Below are positions 13,827 to 32,379 of a DNA stretch of 64,000 bases, piece by piece. Below the pieces are notes generated by a model. The model had not been told where the DNA came from. It saw nothing but the letters and a program-made list of their open reading frames with translations, and ran no database searches. The position numbers and the translations under genes were made by a program. How positions within the stretch are numbered: the stretch's first letter is position 1; each line of letters starts with the position of its first letter. This DNA is from Bacteroidales bacterium (lineage in GTDB: Bacteria > Bacteroidota > Bacteroidia > Bacteroidales > NBLH01): contig JBNKJW010000181.1 in NCBI GenBank assembly GCA_050291445.1, positions 2,739-66,738 of the forward strand. The letters run 5' to 3'.

Positions 13827-16028
13827 ATGAAAAATCAACGAATAATCCTTTTTTCACTAACCTTTATTTGTGTTTTTCAACTCTCAGCGCAGAAAAGAAC
13901 CCTAAAAAGAGGCGAAAATCTATATAAAACATATTCTTATTCAGAATCCATTAAAAAATACGAAGCTATAACAGATAAAACAATTGACATTTACAGAAAG
14001 CTTGCAGAGAGTTATTACAATATTGGTAAATTGAATAAGGCCGAGAATTATTGGAAAATTGTTGTTGAAAACGAATCAAGAACAGCTGATGATATTTACA
14101 GTTATGCTTCTGTACTCTCAATGAATAAAAGGTACGAGGAGTCGGAAAAGTGGATGCGGGAATTTAATAAAATAAATGCAAACGACACCCGAGGAAAGCT
14201 TTGGGCAAATAACAGTGGATTTTATGAAAAACTTCAACAAGATAAAGGCCGGTTTAAAATTGAAAGTTTAAATATAAATAGTAAACAGGAGGATTTTGGT
14301 ACGGCATACTACAAAGACAAAATTGTTTTTGCATCCACACGCCAACCACTTAAAATAGTAAAAAGAGAGTGGAACTGGAATGAACTTCCTTTTCTTGATA
14401 TTTATGTTGGTGAAGTAGATTCAAATTTACATCTTACCTCTTTTGAAAAATTTCATAAAAATATTAATAAAAAGTTTCATGAGGGACCTGCATCGTTCAG
14501 TGCCGATGGTAAATTTATGGCTTTTACAAGAAACAATTACGAAGGAAAAAGCAAAGAAGGAATTATTAAACTAAAATTGTTCACTGCTGAATACAAAAAT
14601 GATAAATGGCAAAAACCTGTTCCACTACACTTTAACAGCAGCGAATACTCTGTTGGCCATGCCAGTTTAACTCCAAACGCCGATACCATGTATTTTGCGT
14701 CTAATATGCCCGGAGGTTTTGGAGGAGTAGATATTTACCGAATTTTTAGAAAAGCTGATGGTAGCTGGACAGATCCTGAAAATCTGGGTGAAAAAATAAA
14801 TACCGAAGGCGATGAAATGTTTCCTTTTGTTCATCCTGATGGAATGCTGTTTTATTCCTCAAACGGCTTACTAGGATTAGGAGGTTTGGATGTGTTTATT
14901 GCACAAATCACCCCAACAGGTTTTGGTAAGCCAGAAAATATTGGAGTGCCCGTTAATAGCAGTTATGATGATTTTGCCTTTATTCTTGATAAGCAGCAAA
15001 GAAGTGGTTATTTCTCATCAAACCGTTTCGAAGGCGAAGGTGATGATGATATTTATCTTTTCAGATTGCTGAAACCTTTTAGGTTTGGCAAGCTCTTGCG
15101 TGGCAAAACAATGGATCAAGACAGTAATATCCTTGCCAATGTAAAAGTAAATCTATACAATGAAAAGGGTGAAATAATCGGAACCACAACAACTTCTGAA
15201 GATGGAAAATATGAATGGGAAATTGAACAGGATAAATACTATTCGCTTGATGGAAAAAAGAAACAATATACTGATGCCCATAATACTGCTGATAGTCACA
15301 CAGAAGAATACATTGTTTATGCGGATCTAATTTTAACAAAAATTCCAGAATTTTCGCTGTATTTTGTTGTTACTGACGCAAGATCAGATGTTCCGTTGAA
15401 AGATGTTAAAGTTACAATTACCAATTATATTGAAAATACTAGCGAAAAAATAATCACCAATGAAAATGGAGACTTTTTCCGCGAACTGAAAGGGAAAAAA
15501 TTAAACGATAGCCTGAGCTATGAATTTACACTTGAAAAAGACGGATACATTTCTGAAACACACAGCTGGCAAAAAGTTCTTTATAGGGAAGGACAATATA
15601 ATGTGCACGAAGATTTGGATTTCGCTCTGGATATTGTTGAAGAAGGAATGGACTTAGGTAAGATATTGAAGATCAAACCCATATATTTTGATTACAATAA
15701 GTCAAACATCCGCCCGGATGCAGCCATTGAGTTGGACAAGATTGTAAAAGTAATGAATGACAATCCAAACATGGTAATCGAATTGGGTTCTCATACCGAT
15801 TGCAGAGGAAGTAAGCGCTACAATATGTCTTTGTCCGACAGAAGGGCAAAATCATCTGCCCGATATATTAAAGTAAGAATAACAAATTCTGAAAGGATTT
15901 ACGGAAAAGGTTATGGCGAAAGCAAACTTATTAATCATTGCGAATGTGAAGGAGCCAAAAAGGTTCCCTGCACTGAAGAAGAACACCAGTTAAACCGACG
16001 AACCGAGTTTACTATTCTTAAAAAGTAG
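13827..16028 (+). CDS. PorE-like TPR/PD40/OmpA peptidoglycan-binding protein
   Basis: TPR N-terminus, PD40 repeats (YFASNMPGGFGGVDIY; FSSNR..G.GDDDIY), OmpA domain (IYFDYNKS, SHTDCRGS, LSDRRA, NRRTEF). Confidence 0.92.
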   Translation: MKNQRIILFSLTFICVFQLSAQKRTLKRGENLYKTYSYSESIKKYEAITDKTIDIYRKLAESYYNIGKLNKAENYWKIVVENESRTADDIYSYASVLSMNKRYEESEKWMREFNKINANDTRGKLWANNSGFYEKLQQDKGRFKIESLNINSKQEDFGTAYYKDKIVFASTRQPLKIVKREWNWNELPFLDIYVGEVDSNLHLTSFEKFHKNINKKFHEGPASFSADGKFMAFTRNNYEGKSKEGIIKLKLFTAEYKNDKWQKPVPLHFNSSEYSVGHASLTPNADTMYFASNMPGGFGGVDIYRIFRKADGSWTDPENLGEKINTEGDEMFPFVHPDGMLFYSSNGLLGLGGLDVFIAQITPTGFGKPENIGVPVNSSYDDFAFILDKQQRSGYFSSNRFEGEGDDDIYLFRLLKPFRFGKLLRGKTMDQDSNILANVKVNLYNEKGEIIGTTTTSEDGKYEWEIEQDKYYSLDGKKKQYTDAHNTADSHTEEYIVYADLILTKIPEFSLYFVVTDARSDVPLKDVKVTITNYIENTSEKIITNENGDFFRELKGKKLNDSLSYEFTLEKDGYISETHSWQKVLYREGQYNVHEDLDFALDIVEEGMDLGKILKIKPIYFDYNKSNIRPDAAIELDKIVKVMNDNPNMVIELGSHTDCRGSKRYNMSLSDRRAKSSARYIKVRITNSERIYGKGYGESKLINHCECEGAKKVPCTEEEHQLNRRTEFTILKK

Positions 16029-16219
16029 CACTTGAGTAACTATTGTAAATTAAAGCACTCATTATTCCATACATCTATCTCAATATAAGAGAATTAGCAA
16101 AAGTCTCATTTTGCCAAAAGCATAAACCTTGTTTGTTCTTTAAGCAACACAGCCATTTATACCGATTGTGAAACAAAATCGCAGATAAGCATCTATATCA
16201 ATCGCTTATCTGTTTTGTT

Positions 16220-22185: not shown

Positions 22186-23574
22186 ATGAAGCAAGTTTTG
22201 ATTTTTTGTCTGTCATTGATTTTATCCATTAATAGTTTTTCGCAAGGCTACGAAATACCAGTAAAGATAAACAATTTAAAGGATTCAATGATTTATTTTG
22301 GCAACCATTTTGGCAATGGTTTTTTTGTAAACGATAGTGCAAAACTTGATAATAACGGACAAGTTTTGTTTACTGGTGATGAGCCATTAAAGGGTGGAAT
22401 TTATTTTCTTTTCCTCCCAGGTGGTAAATATTTTGATTTCCTTATTGATAAACACCAAAAATTCAGCATACAATGTGATACCACAGACTTTTTAAATACT
22501 GTAAGTTTCAAAAATTCATTTCAAAACGAAAAGTTCTTCAACTATCAGAAATACCTAAATAAACAATATCAAACAATTAACCAGATAAAAGAAAAACAAA
22601 AAACCTATTTAACAAAATTAGACTCTTTAATGCAACTGGAGGATGAAGTACAGCTAATTCATAACAAAATATACCTACGCAAGGAGGAAATTATTTCCGA
22701 TCACCCGGATTCATTAATTTCGGTATTGATAAAAGCAGGCATCCCTATTATTCCACCACCGTCACCAAGAGATACAAGTGGCGCAATCATTGATTCAACC
22801 TTTGAATACAGGTATGTAAAAGCCCATTTTTTTGATAATATCGATTTTTCGGATGAGCGCTTGTTAAGAACGGCTATCCTTCAAAATAAAGTACTTGAAT
22901 ATTTAAACCGGATGGCACCACCAATGCTCGATTCAATTGCCAAAGAAGTTGATTATGTGGTTAAAAAAGCCTCCGCAAATCCCGAAGTATATAAATTTGT
23001 GCTTAATACCTTATTCAGGTTCTATAATAAAAGCAATATTATTAGTGATGAAAATATTTTTGTTTACATAGCAGAGAATTATTACCTGGCAGGTAAAACA
23101 CCATGGACTAATGAAGAATTTACAGAAAAATTAAAAAAAGATATTGCCGGAAGAAAACCGAACCTTATTGATGCAGTTGCCCCCGATTTTGCAATGAAAA
23201 ACGATAAAAACCAGGTAGTCAATTTACGAGATATTCAAAACAGGTATGTCATCTTGTATTTTTATGATGTTAAATGCGAAATTTGTAAACAAGTAAGCCC
23301 CGAATTAATGAATTTTTACCGAATTATTAAAGACCGTGGCGTTGATATAGTTGGTATTTACGTTGGCGAAGATAAAAATGCCTGGCTTAAGTACATTGAG
23401 GACAATAATTTAAAATGGACCAATGTTTGGGATCCTAAAAATGCATCAGGTTTTAGAGAGAACTATAAAATTGTAGGTACTCCGCAGTTGTTTTTACTGG
23501 ATGAAGACCAGAAAATTATTGCCAAAAGAATTACAGTGGAACAGTTGATGGGGTATTTCAATTCGGTTGATTAG
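22186..23574 (+). CDS. Secreted TlpA-like thioredoxin protein (DUF4369/DUF5106-type N-terminus)
   Basis: Signal peptide; HFFDNIDFSDERLLRT; C-terminal redoxin with CEIC and TPQLFLLD. Confidence 0.85.
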   Translation: MKQVLIFCLSLILSINSFSQGYEIPVKINNLKDSMIYFGNHFGNGFFVNDSAKLDNNGQVLFTGDEPLKGGIYFLFLPGGKYFDFLIDKHQKFSIQCDTTDFLNTVSFKNSFQNEKFFNYQKYLNKQYQTINQIKEKQKTYLTKLDSLMQLEDEVQLIHNKIYLRKEEIISDHPDSLISVLIKAGIPIIPPPSPRDTSGAIIDSTFEYRYVKAHFFDNIDFSDERLLRTAILQNKVLEYLNRMAPPMLDSIAKEVDYVVKKASANPEVYKFVLNTLFRFYNKSNIISDENIFVYIAENYYLAGKTPWTNEEFTEKLKKDIAGRKPNLIDAVAPDFAMKNDKNQVVNLRDIQNRYVILYFYDVKCEICKQVSPELMNFYRIIKDRGVDIVGIYVGEDKNAWLKYIEDNNLKWTNVWDPKNASGFRENYKIVGTPQLFLLDEDQKIIAKRITVEQLMGYFNSVD

Positions 23575-23632
23575 GTAGATTGAGAAGAATGAATAGAGAT
23601 TGAATAGAGATTGAATGGAGGTTGATGTGGAG

Positions 23633-24961
23633 ATGAAATTTAAAATAGCATTTTTACACTTGTTTATTTTGTTGTTTTTACCAGTGTCATCAATGGTGGC
23701 CCAGGGCTATAAAATTGATGTAAAAATAAAAGGTGCTGAAAACAAAGATGCTCATTTGGCGTTTTACATGGGCGATAAGCAATACATTACCCAAAATGTC
23801 AAGTTCAATAAATCAGGTGAGTTAACTTTTAAAGGGGAACAAAAACTGCCACCTGGTATTTATTTTATTGCAATTGATAACAACTACTTTAATATCTTAA
23901 TCAGAGATGAACAGGAATTTTCATTAAAAAGTGATACCACCAACATTGTTGGATTGATGAAAATTAAGGGCTCCAAAGAGAATGAGGTATTTTTCGATTA
24001 TCAAAAAAAATTACTTGCCAAGAAAAAAGTAATTGGTCAGCTGGAAGAAAAAATTAAAGTTCTTGAAAAAAATAACGATACGGTTCAAAATTATCAAAAT
24101 CAGATAGACCAACTTGTAGCAGAACTGGAACAGATAGCTGATGAAACTACAAAAAAGCATCCTGAAAGCTACATCGCCAAATTAATAGGTACAATGAGCA
24201 ACCAAAACATCGAGAATTTTAAGTTCGATGATAAGGACTTGCTCCGTACGCCCTTTTTTCACAACAGGGTGCGTTTATTCATTAAAAAAAGCATTGAAAA
24301 AAATGCCAATTATATCAATTACCAAACACAGCAACTTTTGTCATCAGTAAGGCACGAAGAAGCTAATTATCAATACATTGCAAATTATTTACTAAATTTC
24401 TACAATAGCTTTTATAAAATTGGCATGAACGAAGTATTTGTTTTTATTGCCGACAATTACTTTTTACCAGACAAAGCCACCTGGTTTAACCAAAAGCAGT
24501 TGGAAGAAATACAAAAACGAAGAGATTTTTTTGCACAAAGCCTTCCGGGAAAAGCTGCCCAGGATTTAACTTTAGAAAGCACAACTGGTGAGTTCTTTTC
24601 ATTGCACCAGGTAAAAGCCAACACCACCCTACTCTACTTTTGGTCAGCAGATTGTGGGCACTGTACAAAATCGACCAAAATACTGAAAAGTTACTACGAG
24701 CAGTTACGGGCAAAAAACATAGATGTATTCGCAGTAAATATTGACAAAGACAAAAAAAAGTGGCTAAAAAAAATAGAAGAAACCGAAGCAGAATGGATCA
24801 ACTGCTACGATCCGGACGAAACCTCAGGATTTAGGGAAAAATACTACGTATTTGGCAGCCCGCTGCTTTATGTCATCAACAACGAAAAAAACATTGTTGC
24901 CAAACTAAATGGCGAAGAAGCCATTGAAAAACTTTGTAAAGAACTGGTATTCAAACAATAA
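23633..24961 (+). CDS. Secreted TlpA-like thioredoxin protein, tandem paralog
   Basis: Same architecture; FWSADCGHC, SPLLYVI; likely start MKFKIAF at 23633. Confidence 0.85.
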   Translation: MKFKIAFLHLFILLFLPVSSMVAQGYKIDVKIKGAENKDAHLAFYMGDKQYITQNVKFNKSGELTFKGEQKLPPGIYFIAIDNNYFNILIRDEQEFSLKSDTTNIVGLMKIKGSKENEVFFDYQKKLLAKKKVIGQLEEKIKVLEKNNDTVQNYQNQIDQLVAELEQIADETTKKHPESYIAKLIGTMSNQNIENFKFDDKDLLRTPFFHNRVRLFIKKSIEKNANYINYQTQQLLSSVRHEEANYQYIANYLLNFYNSFYKIGMNEVFVFIADNYFLPDKATWFNQKQLEEIQKRRDFFAQSLPGKAAQDLTLESTTGEFFSLHQVKANTTLLYFWSADCGHCTKSTKILKSYYEQLRAKNIDVFAVNIDKDKKKWLKKIEETEAEWINCYDPDETSGFREKYYVFGSPLLYVINNEKNIVAKLNGEEAIEKLCKELVFKQ

Positions 24962-25054
24962 ACCACTTAAATATTCAACTTTACTAGCATCAAAGCAAAA
25001 AATCCTTTGGATAAGTTGGTGAATGAAGCTACCTTTACCCCTATTAGTAGATAG
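24962..25054 (+). pseudogene. Decayed C-terminus of a tyrosine recombinase/integrase
   Basis: Translates TT*IFNFTSIKAKNPLDKL, resembling the TTEIYTHV...KNPLD terminus of Xer/IntI-like integrases; lies directly upstream of the cassette array. Confidence 0.45.
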
Positions 25055-25093
25055 GTTGTTTGAAAAAATAATTTATCCCTAATAATGAAAAAA

Positions 25094-25145
25094 TAAACGA
25101 ATGTTTAGGAGAGAATGTTCGTTTTTACAAATGTTGCAGGCAATA
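25094..25145 (+). other. attI-like recombination site
   Basis: Inverted repeat aaacgaa...ttcgttt followed by tacaaat-GTTGCAGGC-aat (GTT at 25133), just before the first cassette ORF. Confidence 0.5.
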
Positions 25146-25158
25146 GATTTTAGATAAT

Positions 25159-25923
25159 ATGGAAAATAAAAGATACGAAAATACGAAAAAAGTATTTGAA
25201 GAAAATTTCGATGAGATAAAAATACTTGTTGAAAAATCTGAATATAAAAATACTGGAAAATCTCTTTTCCGATTTGCACAAAAAATAGACAAAATCTCAA
25301 TTGCTATTAACCAAGCAAATGATTTATATGTTGCAAGGATTTTATTGCGTAGTCTTTTGGAGCATGAAATTATTGCATATTATATTTGGGCAAGATACAT
25401 TGACGATAAAAACGATGAGTGCGGAACTCATTATTATGTCGATCATTTTGTATCGGAACACCTTAAAAGAGAAGGTTATAATTTAAGTATCGAAGGCATT
25501 GAAAAGGGAATTGAAAAAAATCAAAATAATGAAAACTTAAATAAAAAATTGCCATTTCTGAAAGAAGCAACAAAACAGGATTTTGAAAAAGTTTATAGGG
25601 AAGCAAATAAGTTCGACATTAGAAACATCGCAAAATATTTGAATAAGGAAATACCAGAGAGTGACCCTTTTGCGATAGTGAATAAAGAAGTGGTATTAGA
25701 TGCTTTAATAAAATATAATTTCTTATCTTCATACATACATGGTGGTGCAGTAGCAGAGCTGGAAATATTTGAACATCAAAATAATAATTTAAAGAATGAA
25801 TTAAAATCAGCTAAGAATTTTGGAATGATAGGTGCGCGATTTATTATGGAACAGTTGATTATGTTTTTAGCAGACGAACATCCTAAATATAAAGAATTAC
25901 TAAAACAAATTGTTTGTTTTTAA
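25159..25923 (+). CDS. DUF5677-like (HEPN-related) cassette protein
   Basis: ARILLRSLLE and KYNFLSSYIHG motifs; very AT-rich. Confidence 0.6.
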   Translation: MENKRYENTKKVFEENFDEIKILVEKSEYKNTGKSLFRFAQKIDKISIAINQANDLYVARILLRSLLEHEIIAYYIWARYIDDKNDECGTHYYVDHFVSEHLKREGYNLSIEGIEKGIEKNQNNENLNKKLPFLKEATKQDFEKVYREANKFDIRNIAKYLNKEIPESDPFAIVNKEVVLDALIKYNFLSSYIHGGAVAELEIFEHQNNNLKNELKSAKNFGMIGARFIMEQLIMFLADEHPKYKELLKQIVCF

Positions 25924-26077
25924 ATAGTAACCGTAAAATTCTGTATTGCAAATTATTCAATAACTAATCTTTTTCGTAAGTATAAATATAAATTACCAAA
26001 GATTTAAATTTAAGTATCTACCCTCAATTTATTTTATTAATATATTGTTATCAAGATACAACCAAACATTTTATGTC

Positions 26078-26752
26078 ATGTCACAGTTTTTAAAAGAAAT
26101 AGCTAAATCATTAAATCTAGTAATGAAATCACGATTTTATTATAATAATGATGACGTTATAATTAGGATACATGAAAAGAAATTATCTTCAGGACCTTTT
26201 GAAGATAGTGTAAATGTAATTGACAAAAATAATAAATATAAGCTTGACAACTACCGCCAAGGCGTCTTTTATAATCTTTTAGATAAGAATATTAGGAAAA
26301 ATTTAGAGGATGATAAATATATCTATCATTTATTAATAAGAATCGTTGCTGATATGCCACTTTTTCTTAAAAGAAAAGAGGAATTAGAATATTTTGACAT
26401 TTGTCAAAATCAAAATTCGATTAATTTTATTGAAAAAGATTTCAATATCTTTGACTGTGAGGTATTTCACCTCACATCTATTTCTGAAGAGAGAACAGTT
26501 AGATATGGTAAAGATGATATTTTTGATATTACAACTATAAATTCTTGGCATATAAAATATAATAAGGCGATAATTAAAAATGACTATCTACATTCACTCT
26601 TACCTGAAGCGGAAAAAAATGTCAGTCGAGAATCTACATATGGGCCAACTTGGATAGATAAAGAAACAAGAACATTCAAAAAAGACATCAAACAAACTAA
26701 AATATTGCATGAAAGTTTTTCGATGGAAAAATATCTTGCATATATAAATTAA
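26078..26752 (+). CDS. Hypothetical protein (cassette 1, second gene)
   Basis: 225-235 aa ORF, very AT-rich; likely ATG at 26078; no recognisable motif. Confidence 0.6.
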   Translation: MSQFLKEIAKSLNLVMKSRFYYNNDDVIIRIHEKKLSSGPFEDSVNVIDKNNKYKLDNYRQGVFYNLLDKNIRKNLEDDKYIYHLLIRIVADMPLFLKRKEELEYFDICQNQNSINFIEKDFNIFDCEVFHLTSISEERTVRYGKDDIFDITTINSWHIKYNKAIIKNDYLHSLLPEAEKNVSRESTYGPTWIDKETRTFKKDIKQTKILHESFSMEKYLAYIN

Positions 26753-26901
26753 TCTAGAATATAAAAAGGAACCTGCGGATAGTTTTAGTACAGTACAATA
26801 TTACTAGTTCGAGTGTCTTGCTAAAACTCTATGAATCTGAAACAGATAGAATAAAAGAAAAAGAACAAAATGTAATTTTATTTTTCGATAAAAGAGTAAC
26901 A

Positions 26902-27142
26902 GCCTGCAAAACATAGCTATAACATCATGCTGGCAATCAGCCAGTTTGAAAGTTCAGAACATTATAAAAACCCGCCAAATCTTTTGATTTATTCGCGGCC
27001 TTTTTAATTATTTTTGTGGTGCTCATGAATCTAAAGGTTGGTTTTATATATTTGAAGTTAAAACAAAATAAAAACATTTGGCTACTTGCAGCTTGGAAGT
27101 GCTTTGGTTAAAACCAGCACGCTGCATAGCTTGCCGTTGGCT
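26902..27142 (+). repeat. Long attC-like element 1
   Basis: Begins GCCTGCAAAAC, ends GTTGGCT; imperfect arms gctataacatcatgctgg / ccagcacgctgcatagc; core homologous to 27804-28020. Confidence 0.7.
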
Positions 27143-27172
27143 ATATTAAAAACTACAGTAAAACCCATAATT

Positions 27173-27799
27173 ATGAAAAAACTATTCTACTTTTTGACAT
27201 TATTAATTTTAACATCTTGTGGAAACTCAAATATTCCTGAGGATGTTAAGTATGAAATTACTAATGAAGAACCAAATAAAGCTTTGGGAAAAAACAATTT
27301 AGAAGTTCAACTAAACAAAAAAGTTGACGAAAAAATTTTGAAAGAAATTGCATTAGAATTGCGGAAAGACAGAACGCAATATGATAAACTTTGGATTTTT
27401 TATTATATACCGAAGATGACTGCAGGTATGGCTTGGGCAACCACACATTTTACACCTGAATTGAAAATTGAAATAATAGGTTCGACTGAATCACAGGACG
27501 CAGAAACATCTAATACAGAAGATGTTAAAGGAGAAATTATTGGAAAATGGAGAAGTGAAAAAAGTCTAATGGGTGCAACCTTATTTCTGTACAAGAACTC
27601 AGAAAATAAATTGATCATGAGAATTACTTTCAAAGACGGTGGTAAAACAGAAAGCGTAATAAAAGAATCTCTAAAAAATGGCAAGACACGTTATGATGAT
27701 GATAATGAACATGGTGAATACTATATCTTAGAAACCAATGGAAATTTAGGAATGTACGGTTCGGATGGGAAATTTGATGAAGCTGTTATAATTAAATAG
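27173..27799 (+). CDS. Hypothetical lipoprotein (cassette 2)
   Basis: True start MKKLFYFLTLLILTSC (lipobox) at 27173; the upstream ORF-track extension lies inside the repeat. Confidence 0.75.
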   Translation: MKKLFYFLTLLILTSCGNSNIPEDVKYEITNEEPNKALGKNNLEVQLNKKVDEKILKEIALELRKDRTQYDKLWIFYYIPKMTAGMAWATTHFTPELKIEIIGSTESQDAETSNTEDVKGEIIGKWRSEKSLMGATLFLYKNSENKLIMRITFKDGGKTESVIKESLKNGKTRYDDDNEHGEYYILETNGNLGMYGSDGKFDEAVIIK

Positions 27800-27803
27800 T
27801 AAC

Positions 27804-28020
27804 TATCGCCAACAAAACCTAAGACATTGTGTTGATTATCAGTAATTTTAAAAGCTCAAAGCATTGCGAAAACACCGCCAAATTAATAATTTACTCGCTA
27901 ACGCTCATGAAAAAGTTGGCTTCAAGATAAATGAAATTAGAAATAAAATTTAAAATCTGGCTACTTTCAGCTTGGAAGGGTTTTGGTTATCCAAGCCCGC
28001 TATTTAGCCTGTCATTGTGT
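27804..28020 (+). repeat. Long attC-like element 2
   Basis: Begins tatcGCCAAC; shares ccgccaaat, gctcatgaa, tggctact(t/g)cagcttggaag.g..ttggtta with element 1; ends (a)TTGTGT. Confidence 0.7.
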
Positions 28021-28032
28021 ACAATTTGAAAA

Positions 28033-28827
28033 ATGTCTGAAGAAAAAAAACCAAAAAAAGCGAACATTCGACTGGAAGCTGACGCAATTGTAAATGACTA
28101 TGTAGGAATTGTTCAAAATTCGTGTAATATGCTAGCTTTCATAACATCCAAACTTAAAGACATACCTTTTGAGGATATTCCCAGACCACCTGTTTTAGGT
28201 TATGTTGAATTTAATAAAATCAAATATGTCGGAGATAAAAAAATATATCTTGACATGTGGCTATTTAATCATGGAATAAATGACATAATAAAGGCTCTAA
28301 ATTTAAGTATGGCTCGAGCTAATTATTTAGCAGAAATGATGAACTTGAAAGGTAAAACGATAACAATTGAAGAGTATCAAAATTTTGAAAAAAGAATAAA
28401 TAAAAAATTCTTGAAAAAGGATTTGCCAGCACTAATAAGCCATACATCAGATCTTGTAAATAAACCATTAATTTATATTGACGAAATTATATCACTAAAC
28501 AACTCAAGAAAATGTTTAGAACATAGAGCAGGCATTGTAACTGAGATTGACACGAATTTAGAAGTTGATAATAATCAGTTCTTAGAAATTAAATGGATTG
28601 GAACACAATTGAGTGTTTTAAGAAATAGTAAGAAAATAGTAATTGAGAATTCAGGATTTAAGGTTAATAAGGGAGAAAGAATTGATTTTTCCAATCTAAA
28701 CCGAAAAAGGACCTATAATATCGGAGAAAGATTAAGAATAGACATGAAAACATTTTATGAAATGTCATACACTGGATATTTATTTGTCAAACATATAGCC
28801 GACAATTTCAATTTTGGAAACAAATAA
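28033..28827 (+). CDS. Hypothetical protein with HEPN-like Rx4H motif (cassette 3)
   Basis: LNNSRKCLEHRAGIV motif in a helical protein; followed by ACACAAC at 28835-28841. Confidence 0.6.
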   Translation: MSEEKKPKKANIRLEADAIVNDYVGIVQNSCNMLAFITSKLKDIPFEDIPRPPVLGYVEFNKIKYVGDKKIYLDMWLFNHGINDIIKALNLSMARANYLAEMMNLKGKTITIEEYQNFEKRINKKFLKKDLPALISHTSDLVNKPLIYIDEIISLNNSRKCLEHRAGIVTEIDTNLEVDNNQFLEIKWIGTQLSVLRNSKKIVIENSGFKVNKGERIDFSNLNRKRTYNIGERLRIDMKTFYEMSYTGYLFVKHIADNFNFGNK

Positions 28828-29028
28828 AAACTAAACACAACATTTAAGCATCGTTTTTGTTGAACGAAAATAAGCTTATAAATAAAGCATACCGTATATC
28901 TTGTGGAATCAATTTTTCAAGTCTTGAATTTCCTGAAAAACTGATTGTAAAGAAAATAACAGAAAAGCAATATTTTGAACTTTAAGTAGCTAAAGCTTCT
29001 ATGCTTTTAGGAGGTTTAGTTCAACAAG

Positions 29029-31125
29029 CTAATACGCCCCATAAAACTTCCTAACAAACCATTCAACAGTTAAAAAGAAAACAAGTAAAAAGAAGATCCA
29101 TTTTAGTTCTATCAAATCAACCAAATCAGTTATTGAATGCGAAACCGGCTTAATGGAGTCACTGTTTTTCAATTCTTCCAGAAGCTCATTCATTTGGTCA
29201 GGATAATACATCTTGCCATTCGACTGCATTGATAACTGACTCATTAATTGATGATTAGCTGTTAAATCCTGGTATTCGATATTTATAGGGATAACCCTGA
29301 CCTGCCCCGTTTTACTAAATTTTTTGCTTTCGAACGTGGTAGTAGCAACATACTGGTAACTTCCTTGTGGAAGCCTTCCAATGTTTAAATTATAGGCTTT
29401 TCCGGTTTTCGAAAAACTGTAATTGTATTTTTTATTATCAGCACTGGTCAACTCCAACAGCACTTCAGGCTCATTGGTTAACTCATAAGTCTGGTTATAA
29501 AATTCAGCCCTTAAAAAAATATCTTCATTTTCGTTAAAAATATTTTTATGGTAAACCATAAAACGCTCTTTTTTTATATCGAGTGCTAAAAATTGAACAA
29601 TTTTATTAATAAAAGCATCGAACTGTTCATGGTTTTCATGCAGCAAATAATCCTTAATTCGCCAACGCCAAATGCCTTCTCCAAACAAATAAGCATTTTT
29701 TGCTTTTCCGGTCAATAAGGTATTTTCAAACGCAAGCAAGGGTTTATTGGTTTTAATTCCCTTTATTTTTTGGGTTAGTAAAAATTCAAATTGTCCGCTT
29801 ACATTGTAGCTGCCAAAAAGCGATGACAAAGGAGGACAATCAGCAATCAATTCAGCAAATTTTTCATCCAGCTCAAAAAGTTTAAAACCAGGATTTATTT
29901 CCGGAATAACCTGCTCATTTAGTTGTTTTTTATTGGTAATAGAAATACCGGTAAGTAACTGGTTAAAAGCAATAACATTGGTTTGAGGACCAACAATAAA
30001 TAAAACCGGAATTTTATCCCTTGCCAATTGATCTGTAAGTTTTTGAACATTATAGGCGAAAGAAGGCAATTGATGAAATACAACCATCTGATAATCAGAA
30101 ACATTACCTTTAAACTGGTCAAAGGTGTAACTTTGAACAATAATGTTTTTGTTGCTGTTTAGTGCATTTTTAATAGCACCAACATCAGGGTGAACAGCAT
30201 GTGATAAAATAAGCACCTTTTTTTTATCATCAACAACATCAATAACAAATTGTTGACTATTATTTGCTTTTGAAAATTCGCCTTCTTTTGGTTCAGCTGT
30301 TAGCGTGTAGGACTGAAGGCCTTTATCAGTTGCCAAAACATCAAAATGTAACTGCTGAGAATAATCTTCGTTAGCAATGTTTACCAGCTGTTGAGCCACC
30401 ATCCTACCCTTATGAAAAACCTTTACATTCACTGCTTGATTTTTAAAACCAAATGAAGTAAGTGTTGCCTCAATCGGAAAATAATCCTGCAAAAATGCAA
30501 TCTGGTTCGAAAACACATTTTTTACAATAACATCATGTTTTTTGGCCGTATCGCCAAGTGCAATGGTATAAACAGGGAAAGCAAAGTCCTTGGCCGCATA
30601 AACCGGGTTTAACCCCCGATTATAAATACCATCTGATGCTATTACCATTGCACCGATGTTATAATTAATCAGCTTTTTTTCAATTTCATCAAATAATTCA
30701 GAAATGTTGGTTTCCTTTTCATCAAATTCAAAGCTCAAAGTATCACCCAGCTGTTCGCCAAATGAAAAATACCTGGTTTCGTACTCACTTGAAAGACTTT
30801 TGTAGAAATCATCAAACTGTTTAATGTACTCAACGGGTGTATCCGATCCCCTGTTCGTAACCAAACCTATCGACTCAGAATTATCCTGTGCAACAATGAT
30901 TATAGGTTCATCAAAGTAGCGCTGCAAATACTTAATTACAGGCGAAAGCAGCAAAAATGCCAGGCAAAAAAGCACCACAAATCTGGATGTCATTAAACTG
31001 TATTTCAGCCACTTACTCAGCTCCGAAAGCCTTTTATCGCGGTAATACAGGAAAAATGAAAGCCCCAGGGCAATAAATAAGGCTGGTAAAACCAGCCATA
31101 ATGAATATTTTGTAAAAAGTTCGAT
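29029..31125 (-). CDS. BatA-like membrane-anchored vWA domain protein
   Basis: DNSES and SDG MIDAS-like motifs, GIWRWR, C-terminal LTVEWFVRKFYG; the open frame extends 44 codons upstream of the ATG at 30993 to an ATC at 31125. Confidence 0.8.
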   Translation of the reverse strand: MELFTKYSLWLVLPALFIALGLSFFLYYRDKRLSELSKWLKYSLMTSRFVVLFCLAFLLLSPVIKYLQRYFDEPIIIVAQDNSESIGLVTNRGSDTPVEYIKQFDDFYKSLSSEYETRYFSFGEQLGDTLSFEFDEKETNISELFDEIEKKLINYNIGAMVIASDGIYNRGLNPVYAAKDFAFPVYTIALGDTAKKHDVIVKNVFSNQIAFLQDYFPIEATLTSFGFKNQAVNVKVFHKGRMVAQQLVNIANEDYSQQLHFDVLATDKGLQSYTLTAEPKEGEFSKANNSQQFVIDVVDDKKKVLILSHAVHPDVGAIKNALNSNKNIIVQSYTFDQFKGNVSDYQMVVFHQLPSFAYNVQKLTDQLARDKIPVLFIVGPQTNVIAFNQLLTGISITNKKQLNEQVIPEINPGFKLFELDEKFAELIADCPPLSSLFGSYNVSGQFEFLLTQKIKGIKTNKPLLAFENTLLTGKAKNAYLFGEGIWRWRIKDYLLHENHEQFDAFINKIVQFLALDIKKERFMVYHKNIFNENEDIFLRAEFYNQTYELTNEPEVLLELTSADNKKYNYSFSKTGKAYNLNIGRLPQGSYQYVATTTFESKKFSKTGQVRVIPINIEYQDLTANHQLMSQLSMQSNGKMYYPDQMNELLEELKNSDSIKPVSHSITDLVDLIELKWIFFLLVFFLTVEWFVRKFYGAY

Positions 31126-31200: not shown

Positions 31201-32379
31201 TTAGCTTAAATTTTTTGGAAATGCTTCGTAATAATCCTGAATAAACTTGCCGTACCTGCGGGCTTGTCCCTGACCATTATAATATTTTGCAAAATTCACA
31301 AATTCCTTCCTCTTCAAATATTTAATCATTCTTGGACTAAAGAAATCAAAAAGTGCAAAAATGTGGTAACGGATATCTTTATTAAAATTCTCAAACATTT
31401 CTTGAACAGAGTTGTAACCTATTAATTTAGAATTACTTCCAAGAATCTGAGGCAATCCCATACTAATTGAAAGCAAGGCTTTTTCATCATCTAAAGAGCG
31501 TGCAAAATTAAGGGCTTCATATTCTTTATCCTGATCACCATGAAAATTCATCCATTCGCCATCCGGATCTTTACGGAATTTATGCCCTAACCAATTTTTA
31601 CTTGAAGCAAACTGAAAGTGCTGTTTGAATTTAGCCTGGTTATATTTTCCCCAATATTTATAAAACAAATGGTTTTCAAATCGAATTAAAGCTCTTCCAT
31701 CATCAATACCAACACCACCGCTCTCAACACTAAGAACAGCAACAGATGCAGCTAATTCAATGCCCAGTTTATTGCTTAAATGCGATAGCAGATTACCATA
31801 TTTGTTATAAGATTCGCGAACTATTTGATGAATTCTGTTTCCGGTAACATCCACTTTTTTATTCGGTTCTACGGGTACCTTAAGTAAAGTAAGATCCTCA
31901 TATAAAAATGTTTTGCCAGGTTTATCTGCCGATATCTCAATAAATTTTCCAAAAACGTAACCAAACGATTCTTTAAATTTTATTTTATACCAGCCATCAA
32001 TTTCATCAACAATAATTACCTTTTTATCCCTTGTTAAGCGCCCTAGTTTCTCAGAATCAAGGTTTGGCAAGCTTCTTATATTCAGTAAATTAGCATTAAC
32101 CTTACCTGATTTCAACAAAGGTTGAACAAATTTGGCAAATACAAATGCATTGTCATTATTATACTGTATTTCGAACCACTTTTCACCTATCCCAATAATC
32201 TCAACAATATCGTTTTTCTTCAGCTTTCCAACCACATCAGAATCGGTTGTTGCCTTCGATCTAATGTTTAATACATTAGCTATTATTTGCCCTTTCATCA
32301 ACAAAGGCTTTTCTTCAACAGGCATGCGTGTTGGGCCTGTCATTTTTTTCAATTTAGAAAGCATTTTAGCTTTTTTCAT
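31201..32379 (-). CDS. Two SH3b domains + N-acetylmuramidase (DUF3380-type) protein
   Basis: Two LNIRS.......G.L....V.I.....W..I repeats; VESGG, IRFENHLF, SISMGLPQILG.N, FAKYYNG. Confidence 0.8.
   Translation of the reverse strand: MKKAKMLSKLKKMTGPTRMPVEEKPLLMKGQIIANVLNIRSKATTDSDVVGKLKKNDIVEIIGIGEKWFEIQYNNDNAFVFAKFVQPLLKSGKVNANLLNIRSLPNLDSEKLGRLTRDKKVIIVDEIDGWYKIKFKESFGYVFGKFIEISADKPGKTFLYEDLTLLKVPVEPNKKVDVTGNRIHQIVRESYNKYGNLLSHLSNKLGIELAASVAVLSVESGGVGIDDGRALIRFENHLFYKYWGKYNQAKFKQHFQFASSKNWLGHKFRKDPDGEWMNFHGDQDKEYEALNFARSLDDEKALLSISMGLPQILGSNSKLIGYNSVQEMFENFNKDIRYHIFALFDFFSPRMIKYLKRKEFVNFAKYYNGQGQARRYGKFIQDYYEAFPKNLS

Follow-up and report, generated by a model that had tools for sequence, protein, structure and literature searches.

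A cassette array with long attC-like sites in a Bacteroidales genome: a probable integrase-deleted remnant of a non-classical chromosomal integron

We analysed a gene-cassette array in a 64,000-nucleotide (nt) stretch of a Bacteroidales genome (the window) as a candidate integron remnant. Between 25133 and 29025, three cassettes with four co-oriented open reading frames (ORFs) on the + strand are separated by two homologous elements, e1 and e2, which resemble the attC sites of integron cassettes. An attI-like site and a short stretch of recombinase-like sequence lie ahead of them. The features are as follows (aa, amino acids).

24992..25054, + strand: probable remnant of a recombinase gene, last ~20 codons, reading KAKNPLDKLVNEATFTPISR*
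25095..25135, + strand: attI-like site; hairpin AAACGAA..TTCGTTT (25095-25124), then TACAAAT|GTT (25126-25135)
25133..26910, + strand: cassette 1, with ORFs 25159-25923 (254 aa) and 26078-26752 (224 aa)
26902..27142, + strand: element e1, 241 nt including both cores; its inner core reads AAA, a mutated AAC
27136..27813, + strand: cassette 2, with ORF 27173-27799 (208 aa)
27804..28020, + strand: element e2, 217 nt; outer core ATT in place of GTT
28014..28841, + strand: cassette 3, with ORF 28033-28827 (264 aa); ACACAAC lies 8 nt past the stop codon
28842..29025, + strand: segment devoid of ORFs that closes with the inner core GTTTAGTTCAAC; no attC follows

The source genome (G000) is a 6.94-Mb assembly in 307 contigs, 94% complete; C numbers denote contigs and other G numbers denote relatives. 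The genus set comprises 12 genomes including G000, and the order sample 201 genomes. Four public sequencing runs (X1-X4), the first of which may represent the source sample, were compared with the window as Logan assembled contigs rather than raw reads; a salt-marsh run (X5), which has a small word share, was left out of the evidence.

All sequence strings quoted in an initial annotation of this DNA were found where it had placed them. The two homologous elements of about 210-240 bp that it described measure 241 and 217 nt and align end to end, with 78 nt ungapped at 73%. Both are recognised by nhmmer profiles of the family's 5' module (68 nt) and 3' module (102 nt), with E values of 9.8e-17 and 9.8e-24, respectively, in e1 and of 2.6e-13 and 8.9e-19 in e2. 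The ORFs are indeed co-oriented and AT-rich (GC content of the array region 28.8%, vs 35.0% for the genome). Of the three units said to open with a GTT-type core and to close with its reverse complement, the end complementarity held: GTTGCAGGC at 25133 against GCCTGCAAA(AC) at 26902 (end GCCTGCAAa) matches at 8/9 positions in cassette 1, GTTGGCTATATT at 27136 against AACTATCGCCAAC (27801-27813, in reverse complement) at 11/13 in cassette 2, and ATTGTGT at 28014 against ACACAAC at 28835 at 6/7 in cassette 3. The GTT did not hold throughout, the outer core of e2 being ATT. The element e1 is 90% identical to a copy on C21 of G000; because its subfamily copies show AAC, as does an X1 contig of a different family copy (..CTAAC|ACATAGC), the inner core of e1 is an AAC mutated to AAA, and the match is therefore 8/9 without a 2-nt insertion. 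The stretch 28842-29025 is not a decayed element copy but an ORF-less segment that ends in GTTTAGTTCAAC, 3 nt before the stop codon of a convergent 654-aa gene. It aligns with G008:C13 ~2680-2830, where an element comes after ..GTTTAGTTCAAC, and the same core stands in front of elements at G000:C76:17691 and in L062.

Both elements belong to a repeat family spread over at least 15 contigs of G000 in single or paired copies. Profile searches of this genome located 19 places for the 5' module and 19 for the 3' module, many of them close to the end of a contig. The 23 distinct full copies, drawn from G000 and congener loci, are 173-255 nt long and form classes of about 177, 205, 227 and 252 nt that differ by insertions within a central hairpin, GCCAAAT..ATTTGGC. 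The 3' module ends ..TAGCnnnnCGTT in every copy and is followed by unrelated sequence, the copies ending GTTnnnn; the 5' module comes after a variable nnnnAAC, and the sequence before this AAC is unrelated between copies. Conservation is far better in the internal modules than at the element ends. BLAST searches with e1 gave matches in 5/11 other genus genomes and in 0/29 genomes of other families; the family is genus-restricted and the long attC a genus-specific derivative. A pattern scan of public contigs returned 18 stretches, seven of which were confirmed by the family profiles: four in metagenome-assembled genomes labelled 'Bacteroidales bacterium', two in those labelled 'Bacteroidota bacterium' and one in a 504-nt contig otherwise labelled. 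The remaining 11, which the profiles did not confirm, were discarded as chance. One 3'-module sequence is shared by G000:C6:5645-5726 (contig end) and C79:57-141 (contig start), so that the assembly probably breaks inside an element between these contigs. At G000:C230:36577(-)/21950(-), C85:1704/10834 and C194:12893/26159, a 5' and a 3' module on the same strand are separated by 9-15 kb; such a pair could be a long cassette, an element that has been split, or modules with diverged sites between them.

Cassette-specific end complementarity was examined across this family in two tests. In test 1, the 17 nt from each GTT were compared with the 21 nt that span each 5' start, taken in reverse complement, a cognate pair being formed with the next element downstream within 5 kb. 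The four cognate pairs of G000 scored 4, 7, 8 and 12, and a score of at least 7 was reached by 5/338 non-cognate pairs. Test 2 started from 32 distinct 5' modules, and the AAC could be located in 24 of them but not in 8. The reverse complement of the flank (at least 9 nt) was found 450-1230 nt upstream in 11/24 cases, compared with 2/24 in an equal downstream control; examples are GTTGTAAGTT...AACTTACAAC (C126) and aTTGTAGCC...GGCTACAAc (C74). Only anchored or tiled core pairs were used as test evidence, never bare pair counts, because a genome-wide exact-pair scan is noisy in AT-rich DNA (exact 10-nt GTT../..AAC matches: 2851 pairs vs 2042 in shuffled sequence; tandem pairs: 182 vs 84). The family thus possesses inverse cores (..AAC / GTT..) with complementarity within the cassette, as integrons do, and the pairing of a GTT-side flank with the next AAC-side flank reads as the signature of an integron-type crossover at G|TT. 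Target-site duplications were not found, and the flanks of single elements are neither direct repeats nor conserved, as those of a miniature inverted-repeat transposable element (MITE) would be. Classical attC sites are about 55-141 nt long, a range that the two window elements exceed, as does the whole family.

Ahead of cassette 1, the attI-like region, together with the preceding ~50-145 nt, shows homology to sites on C15, C21 and C22 of G000 (0/300 shuffles reach the score); the similarity of a candidate site on C286 to the window was not significant (51/300 shuffles). In G010:C116 and G003:C571, ..ATACAAAT|GTT (..ATATACAAAT|GTT) is located ~100 nt past the stop codon of a recombinase gene. 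An attI-type site beside a recombinase gene, the arrangement of an integron, is thus present in relatives, and the window keeps a homologous site without the gene. The stretch 24992-25054 aligns with the 3' end of the coding sequence of the recombinase gene in G003:C571 with a score of 38 (0/300 shuffles, null maximum 33) and shares with it an identical run of 18 nt, AAAAAATCCTTTGGATAA; with G010 it shares an exact run of 13 nt, which 7/300 shuffles reach. We consider it, with moderate confidence, to be probably the last ~20 codons of an array-linked tyrosine recombinase gene. No longer recombinase remnant was detected in the window by tblastn. The attI-like sites at G000:C15:22566 and C22:36253 have diverged upstream and have nearly the same cassette start, GTTGCAG[G/A]CAAGTAGAAAGAAATTATTTTTAG.., 150-250 nt before contig ends; its first 11 nt are also the first 11 nt of cassette 1 in the window.

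The recombinases of congeners form one clade of 368-649 aa, represented by seven examined loci, one of which is a 119-aa fragment. All seven point to a contig end 0.05-1.6 kb downstream, and two of the contigs end exactly at ..GTT. Where more than 1 kb of downstream sequence is available, three of four loci carry a first cassette with ends complementary over 9-10 nt: 10/10 in G010 (GTTAGCATTA/TAATGCTAAC), 10/10 in G008 (GTTATGGGTA/TACCCATAAC) and 9/10 in G011, whose cassette starts with TTT, not GTT (tTTGGCGGTA/TACCGCCAAC). In G008, a member of the window's element family comes after this first cassette.

With the G003 protein as query, matches at E<=1e-40 were obtained in 97 genomes of the order sample, the weaker of which (~35% identity, ~300 aa) are probably ordinary Xer genes. 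Among the 30 best loci, the contig ends no more than 839 nt past the stop codon in 16 (no more than 334 nt in 15 of them) and no more than 1.5 kb upstream in eight; seven contigs end 0-3 nt after GTT. Longer downstream sequence was available at 16 loci. In five of these (G040, G018, G046, G093 and G136), the gene is immediately followed by a tiled array on its own strand, and no tiled array was detected by the exact-match criterion at the other 11. The array of G040, a complete single-contig genome, packs 24 cassettes into 18 kb, with a near-identical attC of 71 nt between most of them. Those of the other four genomes have attC sites of ~123-129 nt that belong to one shared family, which is present in the window's genus as well. 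The variable letters of the cores change together from one tiled cassette to another (GCACAAC/GTTGTGC, CGCTAAC/GTTAGCG and TTACAAC/GTTGTAA, among others), an argument that pairing is under selection. In the G040 array (L163 1353-19509), a 314-nt ORF-less cassette starting GTTGTGCCC is present nine times, and three attC sites of the ~125-127-nt type are scattered among those of the 71-nt type. In G018:C7 (L173, oriented), a single array is preceded by a tandem pair of recombinases from the array-linked clade (31-1083 and 1265-2380).

The linked recombinases resemble archaeal XerA, the resolvase of chromosome dimers at dif. Their scores are 200-243 bits on the XerA-like model NF040815 (cut-off 220 bits, passed by 5/8) and 179-238 bits on the IntI model TIGR02249 (cut-off 265 bits, passed by 0/8). 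Among proteins of known structure, their best sequence matches are XerA (PDB 4a8e, 137-152 bits; 5hxy, 127-130 bits) rather than IntI4. The alignment to IntI4 covers residues 14-180 and 247-319; the 66 residues of IntI4 between these parts are replaced by 23, and model positions ~180-238 of TIGR02249 are skipped; this gap is the place of the IntI-specific domain. An N-terminal extension of ~55-100 aa (more than 300 aa in some) matches no Pfam family. Array-bearing genomes also carry separate Xer-type genes of ~300 aa, indicating that the linked recombinase is an extra paralogue. Homologues are named 'site-specific tyrosine recombinase/integron integrase' or 'XerD' in public sources for Carboxylicivirga, Winogradskyella, Algibacter and others, and the family also occurs in records of other orders.

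Canonical IntI was searched for with TIGR02249. G000 has 17 partial matches, none of them over the cut-off, and no match over the cut-off was obtained in the 12 genus genomes or in the five array-bearing genomes, one of which is complete in a single contig. An IntI with the additional domain around patch III is accordingly found neither in G000 nor among the linked recombinases of its relatives. Elsewhere in the order, IntI genes are located at G137:C40:38301-39242, G035:C35:13112-13864 and G175:C95:2689-3195; G137 also carries the Xer-like clade (C29:52888-53682). The best IntI-model match in G000, a tyrosine recombinase on C25 that lies 8 kb from an element, was rejected as the integrase because an IS91-type Y2 transposase comes next and no cassette start is adjacent. 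At this locus (G000:C25:10358-12375, L041), the 269-aa tyrosine recombinase overlaps the start of the IS91-family transposase gene (Y2_Tnp + Zn_Tnp_IS91), and a pair with the same gene sizes (269 and 403 aa) is present at G008:C43 (L130) 869-2886.

The variability of the array was assessed against its neighbours.

22186-23574 and 23615-24961: tandem TlpA-like thiol-disulfide oxidoreductase genes, the upstream neighbours of the array
29029-30993: convergent 654-aa gene, the downstream neighbour of the array

In G008, the closest relative (~75% nt identity in the flanks), 146 bp separate the same two genes that are 4.09 kb apart in the window, and homology to the G008 flank picks up again at about 29029. 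The corresponding gap is estimated at 23-860 bp in other congeners. Two X4 contigs from a ~96% identical strain follow the window to 25135/25136, the end of TACAAATGTT, and then diverge differently; these contigs show that the platform was still active in this lineage not long ago. An X2 contig departs from e1 at 27138, directly after GTT. Window parts left uncovered by X3 and X4 and apparent e1-e2 'joints' come from other repeat copies and were not used as evidence.

We also examined the folding of the long sites. Element ends can form, in this order, the R pairing, ~4 nt per side that stay unpaired, an AGCT x AGCY box and a further imperfect stem. In 21/23 elements (two with aberrant 3' ends were dropped), this L-box candidate shows 60/84 Watson-Crick cells, 14 A.C and 2 G.T; being rich in A.C and poor in G.T, it favours the bottom strand. 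The GGCT x AGCC hairpin of the 3' module shows 69/84 Watson-Crick cells, 12 G.T and no A.C, which favours the top (mRNA) strand. When 11 elements were joined in silico to their own cassette start, as in the circle form, the termini paired in the minimum-energy folds of eight. RNAalifold on 10 short-form copies gave local hairpins only, on either strand. Rfam 15, in which attC is not represented, gave no match in the window at the gathering score and two weak ones at E<=1, both inside ORFs.

Cumulatively, these results suggest that window 24992-29025 is the integrase-deleted remnant of a non-classical Bacteroidota chromosomal integron, a reading to which we assign a probability of roughly 0.85. 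Recombination of circular cassettes with self-complementary attC ends at G|TT is established for integrons. In the mechanism proposed here, a circular cassette would carry one attC, the ends of which (nnnnAAC ... GTTnnnn) would pair when single-stranded, and a tyrosine recombinase would exchange strands at G|TT between this attC and attI (TACAAAT|GTT) or another attC. Such an exchange would leave each arrayed attC with the TTnnnn of the next cassette. As the recombinase is absent from G000, the array is presumably frozen and decaying there. Decay had been proposed in the initial annotation, and its features are apparent: an integrase is lacking, the core of e1 has changed from AAC to AAA and that of e2 from GTT to ATT, cassette 1 has two ORFs, and the last unit is ORF-less and misses its attC. 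The integron-like reading given there was likewise borne out, in that the repeat shows single-gene spacing and end complementarity elsewhere. Its suggestion of cassette gain or loss among relatives agrees with the absence of the 4.09-kb block from the syntenic site of G008, and the linked tyrosine recombinase that it proposed to seek does adjoin such cassettes in congeners and across the order. For a wider claim, that there is a large and mostly unrecognised lineage of Bacteroidota integrons with cassette-co-oriented, XerA-like integrases devoid of the IntI-specific domain and with attC sites of 71 to about 255 nt, we regard the odds as even.

Several observations weigh against the integron reading. 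G000 has no recombinase of the array-linked clade (<=38% identity), so the link to a recombinase rests on relatives and on homology of sites, not on adjacency. The similarity of the integrase remnant is short, one of the four cognate pairs (C76) is without complementarity, and the ends of cassette 3 match at just 6/7 positions. The competing hairpin of the 3' module is kept at least as well as the terminal pairing; the termini pair in just 2/11 elements when the array form is folded to minimum energy, and no extrahelical bases could be established in the folds. Recombination itself was not directly observed, the run evidence consisting of assembled contigs that give no view of circles or excision joints. 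Canonical IntI over the cut-off does occur in 3/201 order genomes, and the IntI-specific domain, absent from the linked recombinase, is held necessary for integron recombination in the accessible text of two sources (Ghaly 2022 preprint; PMC8138268).

The last two points, together with an assembly that is 94% complete in 307 contigs, would fit a classical cluster of attC sites without any integron integrase (CALIN), whose canonical IntI would be encoded elsewhere, lost or unassembled, with the adjacent Xer-like recombinase a bystander. The window has two sites called by family profiles and no integrase. Its cores presumably also fit the RYYYAAC/GTTRRRY consensus. We nevertheless consider a classical CALIN unlikely, since IntI is missing from all five array-bearing genomes, the complete one included, and from all 12 genus genomes, and since the Xer-like gene is adjacent and co-oriented at no fewer than eight loci of different families, with a conserved GTT-ending site where contigs break. 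It is very unlikely, in our view, that the long elements serve chiefly as modules of structured RNA or of regulation between genes (a terminator, a processing site or a small RNA), with a recombination role that is secondary or lost. The conserved 3'-module hairpin, further stems with G.T and few A.C, which favour the mRNA strand, and the much better conservation of internal modules than of ends are what such modules would show; however, the elements have no Rfam match at either threshold, no T-run comes after the hairpin, and flank complementarity and indel behaviour would be left unexplained. An RNA or regulatory role can, moreover, be compatible with an integron remnant, in addition to it.

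Two further explanations deserve mention. Dispersal over at least 15 contigs in single or paired copies and imperfect terminal inverted similarity would be expected of a repeat like a MITE or a repetitive extragenic palindrome (REP) that inserts between genes, the flank complementarity being incidental. The lack of target-site duplications and the fact that variable ends match the far end of the neighbour, not each other, make this highly improbable; dispersion of single attC sites is also known for integrons, according to the accessible part of 10.1101/2022.09.11.507474. The Xer-like nature of the linked recombinase could be taken to indicate pdif-like gene modules moved at short sites by housekeeping XerC/XerD through double-strand recombination. 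This is hardly credible, given that the linked recombinase is a paralogue beside separate Xer-type genes and that the sites are 71-255 nt long with covarying distal ends. In the pdif layout, sites of 28 bp alternate in orientation.

The integron remnant proposed here shares several traits with sedentary chromosomal integrons such as the Vibrio cholerae superintegron with its V. cholerae repeats (VCR): tandem, co-oriented and mostly single-ORF cassettes, ORFs without an assigned function, lineage-specific similar attC repeats, inverse cores ..AAC / GTT.. with cassette-specific complementarity and, here in relatives, a GTT-ending attI beside a tyrosine recombinase. In contrast to these integrons, the linked recombinase is without the IntI-specific insertion, falls below the IntI cut-off and is co-oriented with the cassettes; the attC sites of the window are 217-241 nt long, and its copy has no integrase. 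A shared direction of integrase and cassettes is also found in the reverse integrons of Spirochaetota (Treponema), but theirs are IntIs with the additional domain that the recombinases here lack; typical Spirochaetota IntIs are described as 'generally in reverse orientation' in the accessible text of the Ghaly 2022 preprint. At least two attC-type sites with cassettes and no integrase nearby recall CALIN and single attC sites lacking integron integrases (SALIN), which are thought to be degraded integrons (PMC9024848, accessible text). CALIN are, however, defined through the attC covariance model of IntegronFinder, whereas the sites of the window were called by profiles of their own family. The default attC size limit of IntegronFinder is 200 nt, which these sites may exceed.

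The working definition of integrons relies on the IntI-specific domain and on attC models whose training drew mostly on Proteobacteria. This domain is treated as defining in the Ghaly 2022 preprint, as far as its accessible text goes. In that of Smyshlyaev et al. 2021 (PMC8138268), insertion-less members of an 'integron-like' subgroup of tyrosine recombinases are not tied to cassette arrays. Surveys report almost no integrons in Bacteroidetes, only In0 elements and one complete integron in Salinibacter (PMC9024848, accessible text). The accessible parts of the open-access literature (including PMC9024848, PMC8618304, PMC8138268, 10.1101/2022.02.06.479319 and 10.1101/2024.07.02.601686) describe neither such arrays nor such a recombinase as an integrase; their supplements may list Bacteroidota CALINs. 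If the wider lineage of Bacteroidota integrons exists, cassette recombination of the hairpin type does not depend on the IntI insertion, and surveys that require the IntI domain or cap attC size would undercount a whole phylum. If the linked recombinase is the integrase, the structural requirement for recognition of a folded attC is reopened and becomes testable in a cultivable host, and a large mobile pool of accessory genes in marine and sediment Bacteroidota has been overlooked.

As to cassette contents, the 254-aa ORF of cassette 1 has a weak Pfam match to DUF5677 (28.7 bits, cut-off 27.1) and no NCBIfam or PADLOC family, and the 224-, 208- and 264-aa ORFs have no family in Pfam, NCBIfam or PADLOC. 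The N-terminus of the cassette 2 ORF, MKKLFYFLTLLILTSC, reads as a lipoprotein-type signal with a lipobox. A stretch of 63 aa at 43% identity on C70 is its lone paralogue in G000, where no other paralogues of cassette proteins were found. A recurring non-coding segment, ..GCATACC.TATAT.TTGTGGAATCAA..AAGTCTTGAATT.., precedes the core GTTTAGTTCAAC in window 28842-29025, at G008:C13 (L088) ~2600-2830 and at G000:C76 ~15800-16130; in C76 and G008:C13, a hairpin-rich stretch (..AGTTTTGGTTTG..CAAACCAA..) comes before it. This segment could be a cassette without a gene, or else a gene for a small RNA. Outside the array, the gene pair at 22186-24961 encodes paralogous, lipoprotein-like proteins of thioredoxin fold (DUF4369 + AhpC-TSA/Thioredoxin_8) and is kept in 12/12 genus genomes, and the product of window 31201-32379 (- strand; 392 aa) has two SH3_3 domains as well as an N-acetylmuramidase domain (PF11860).

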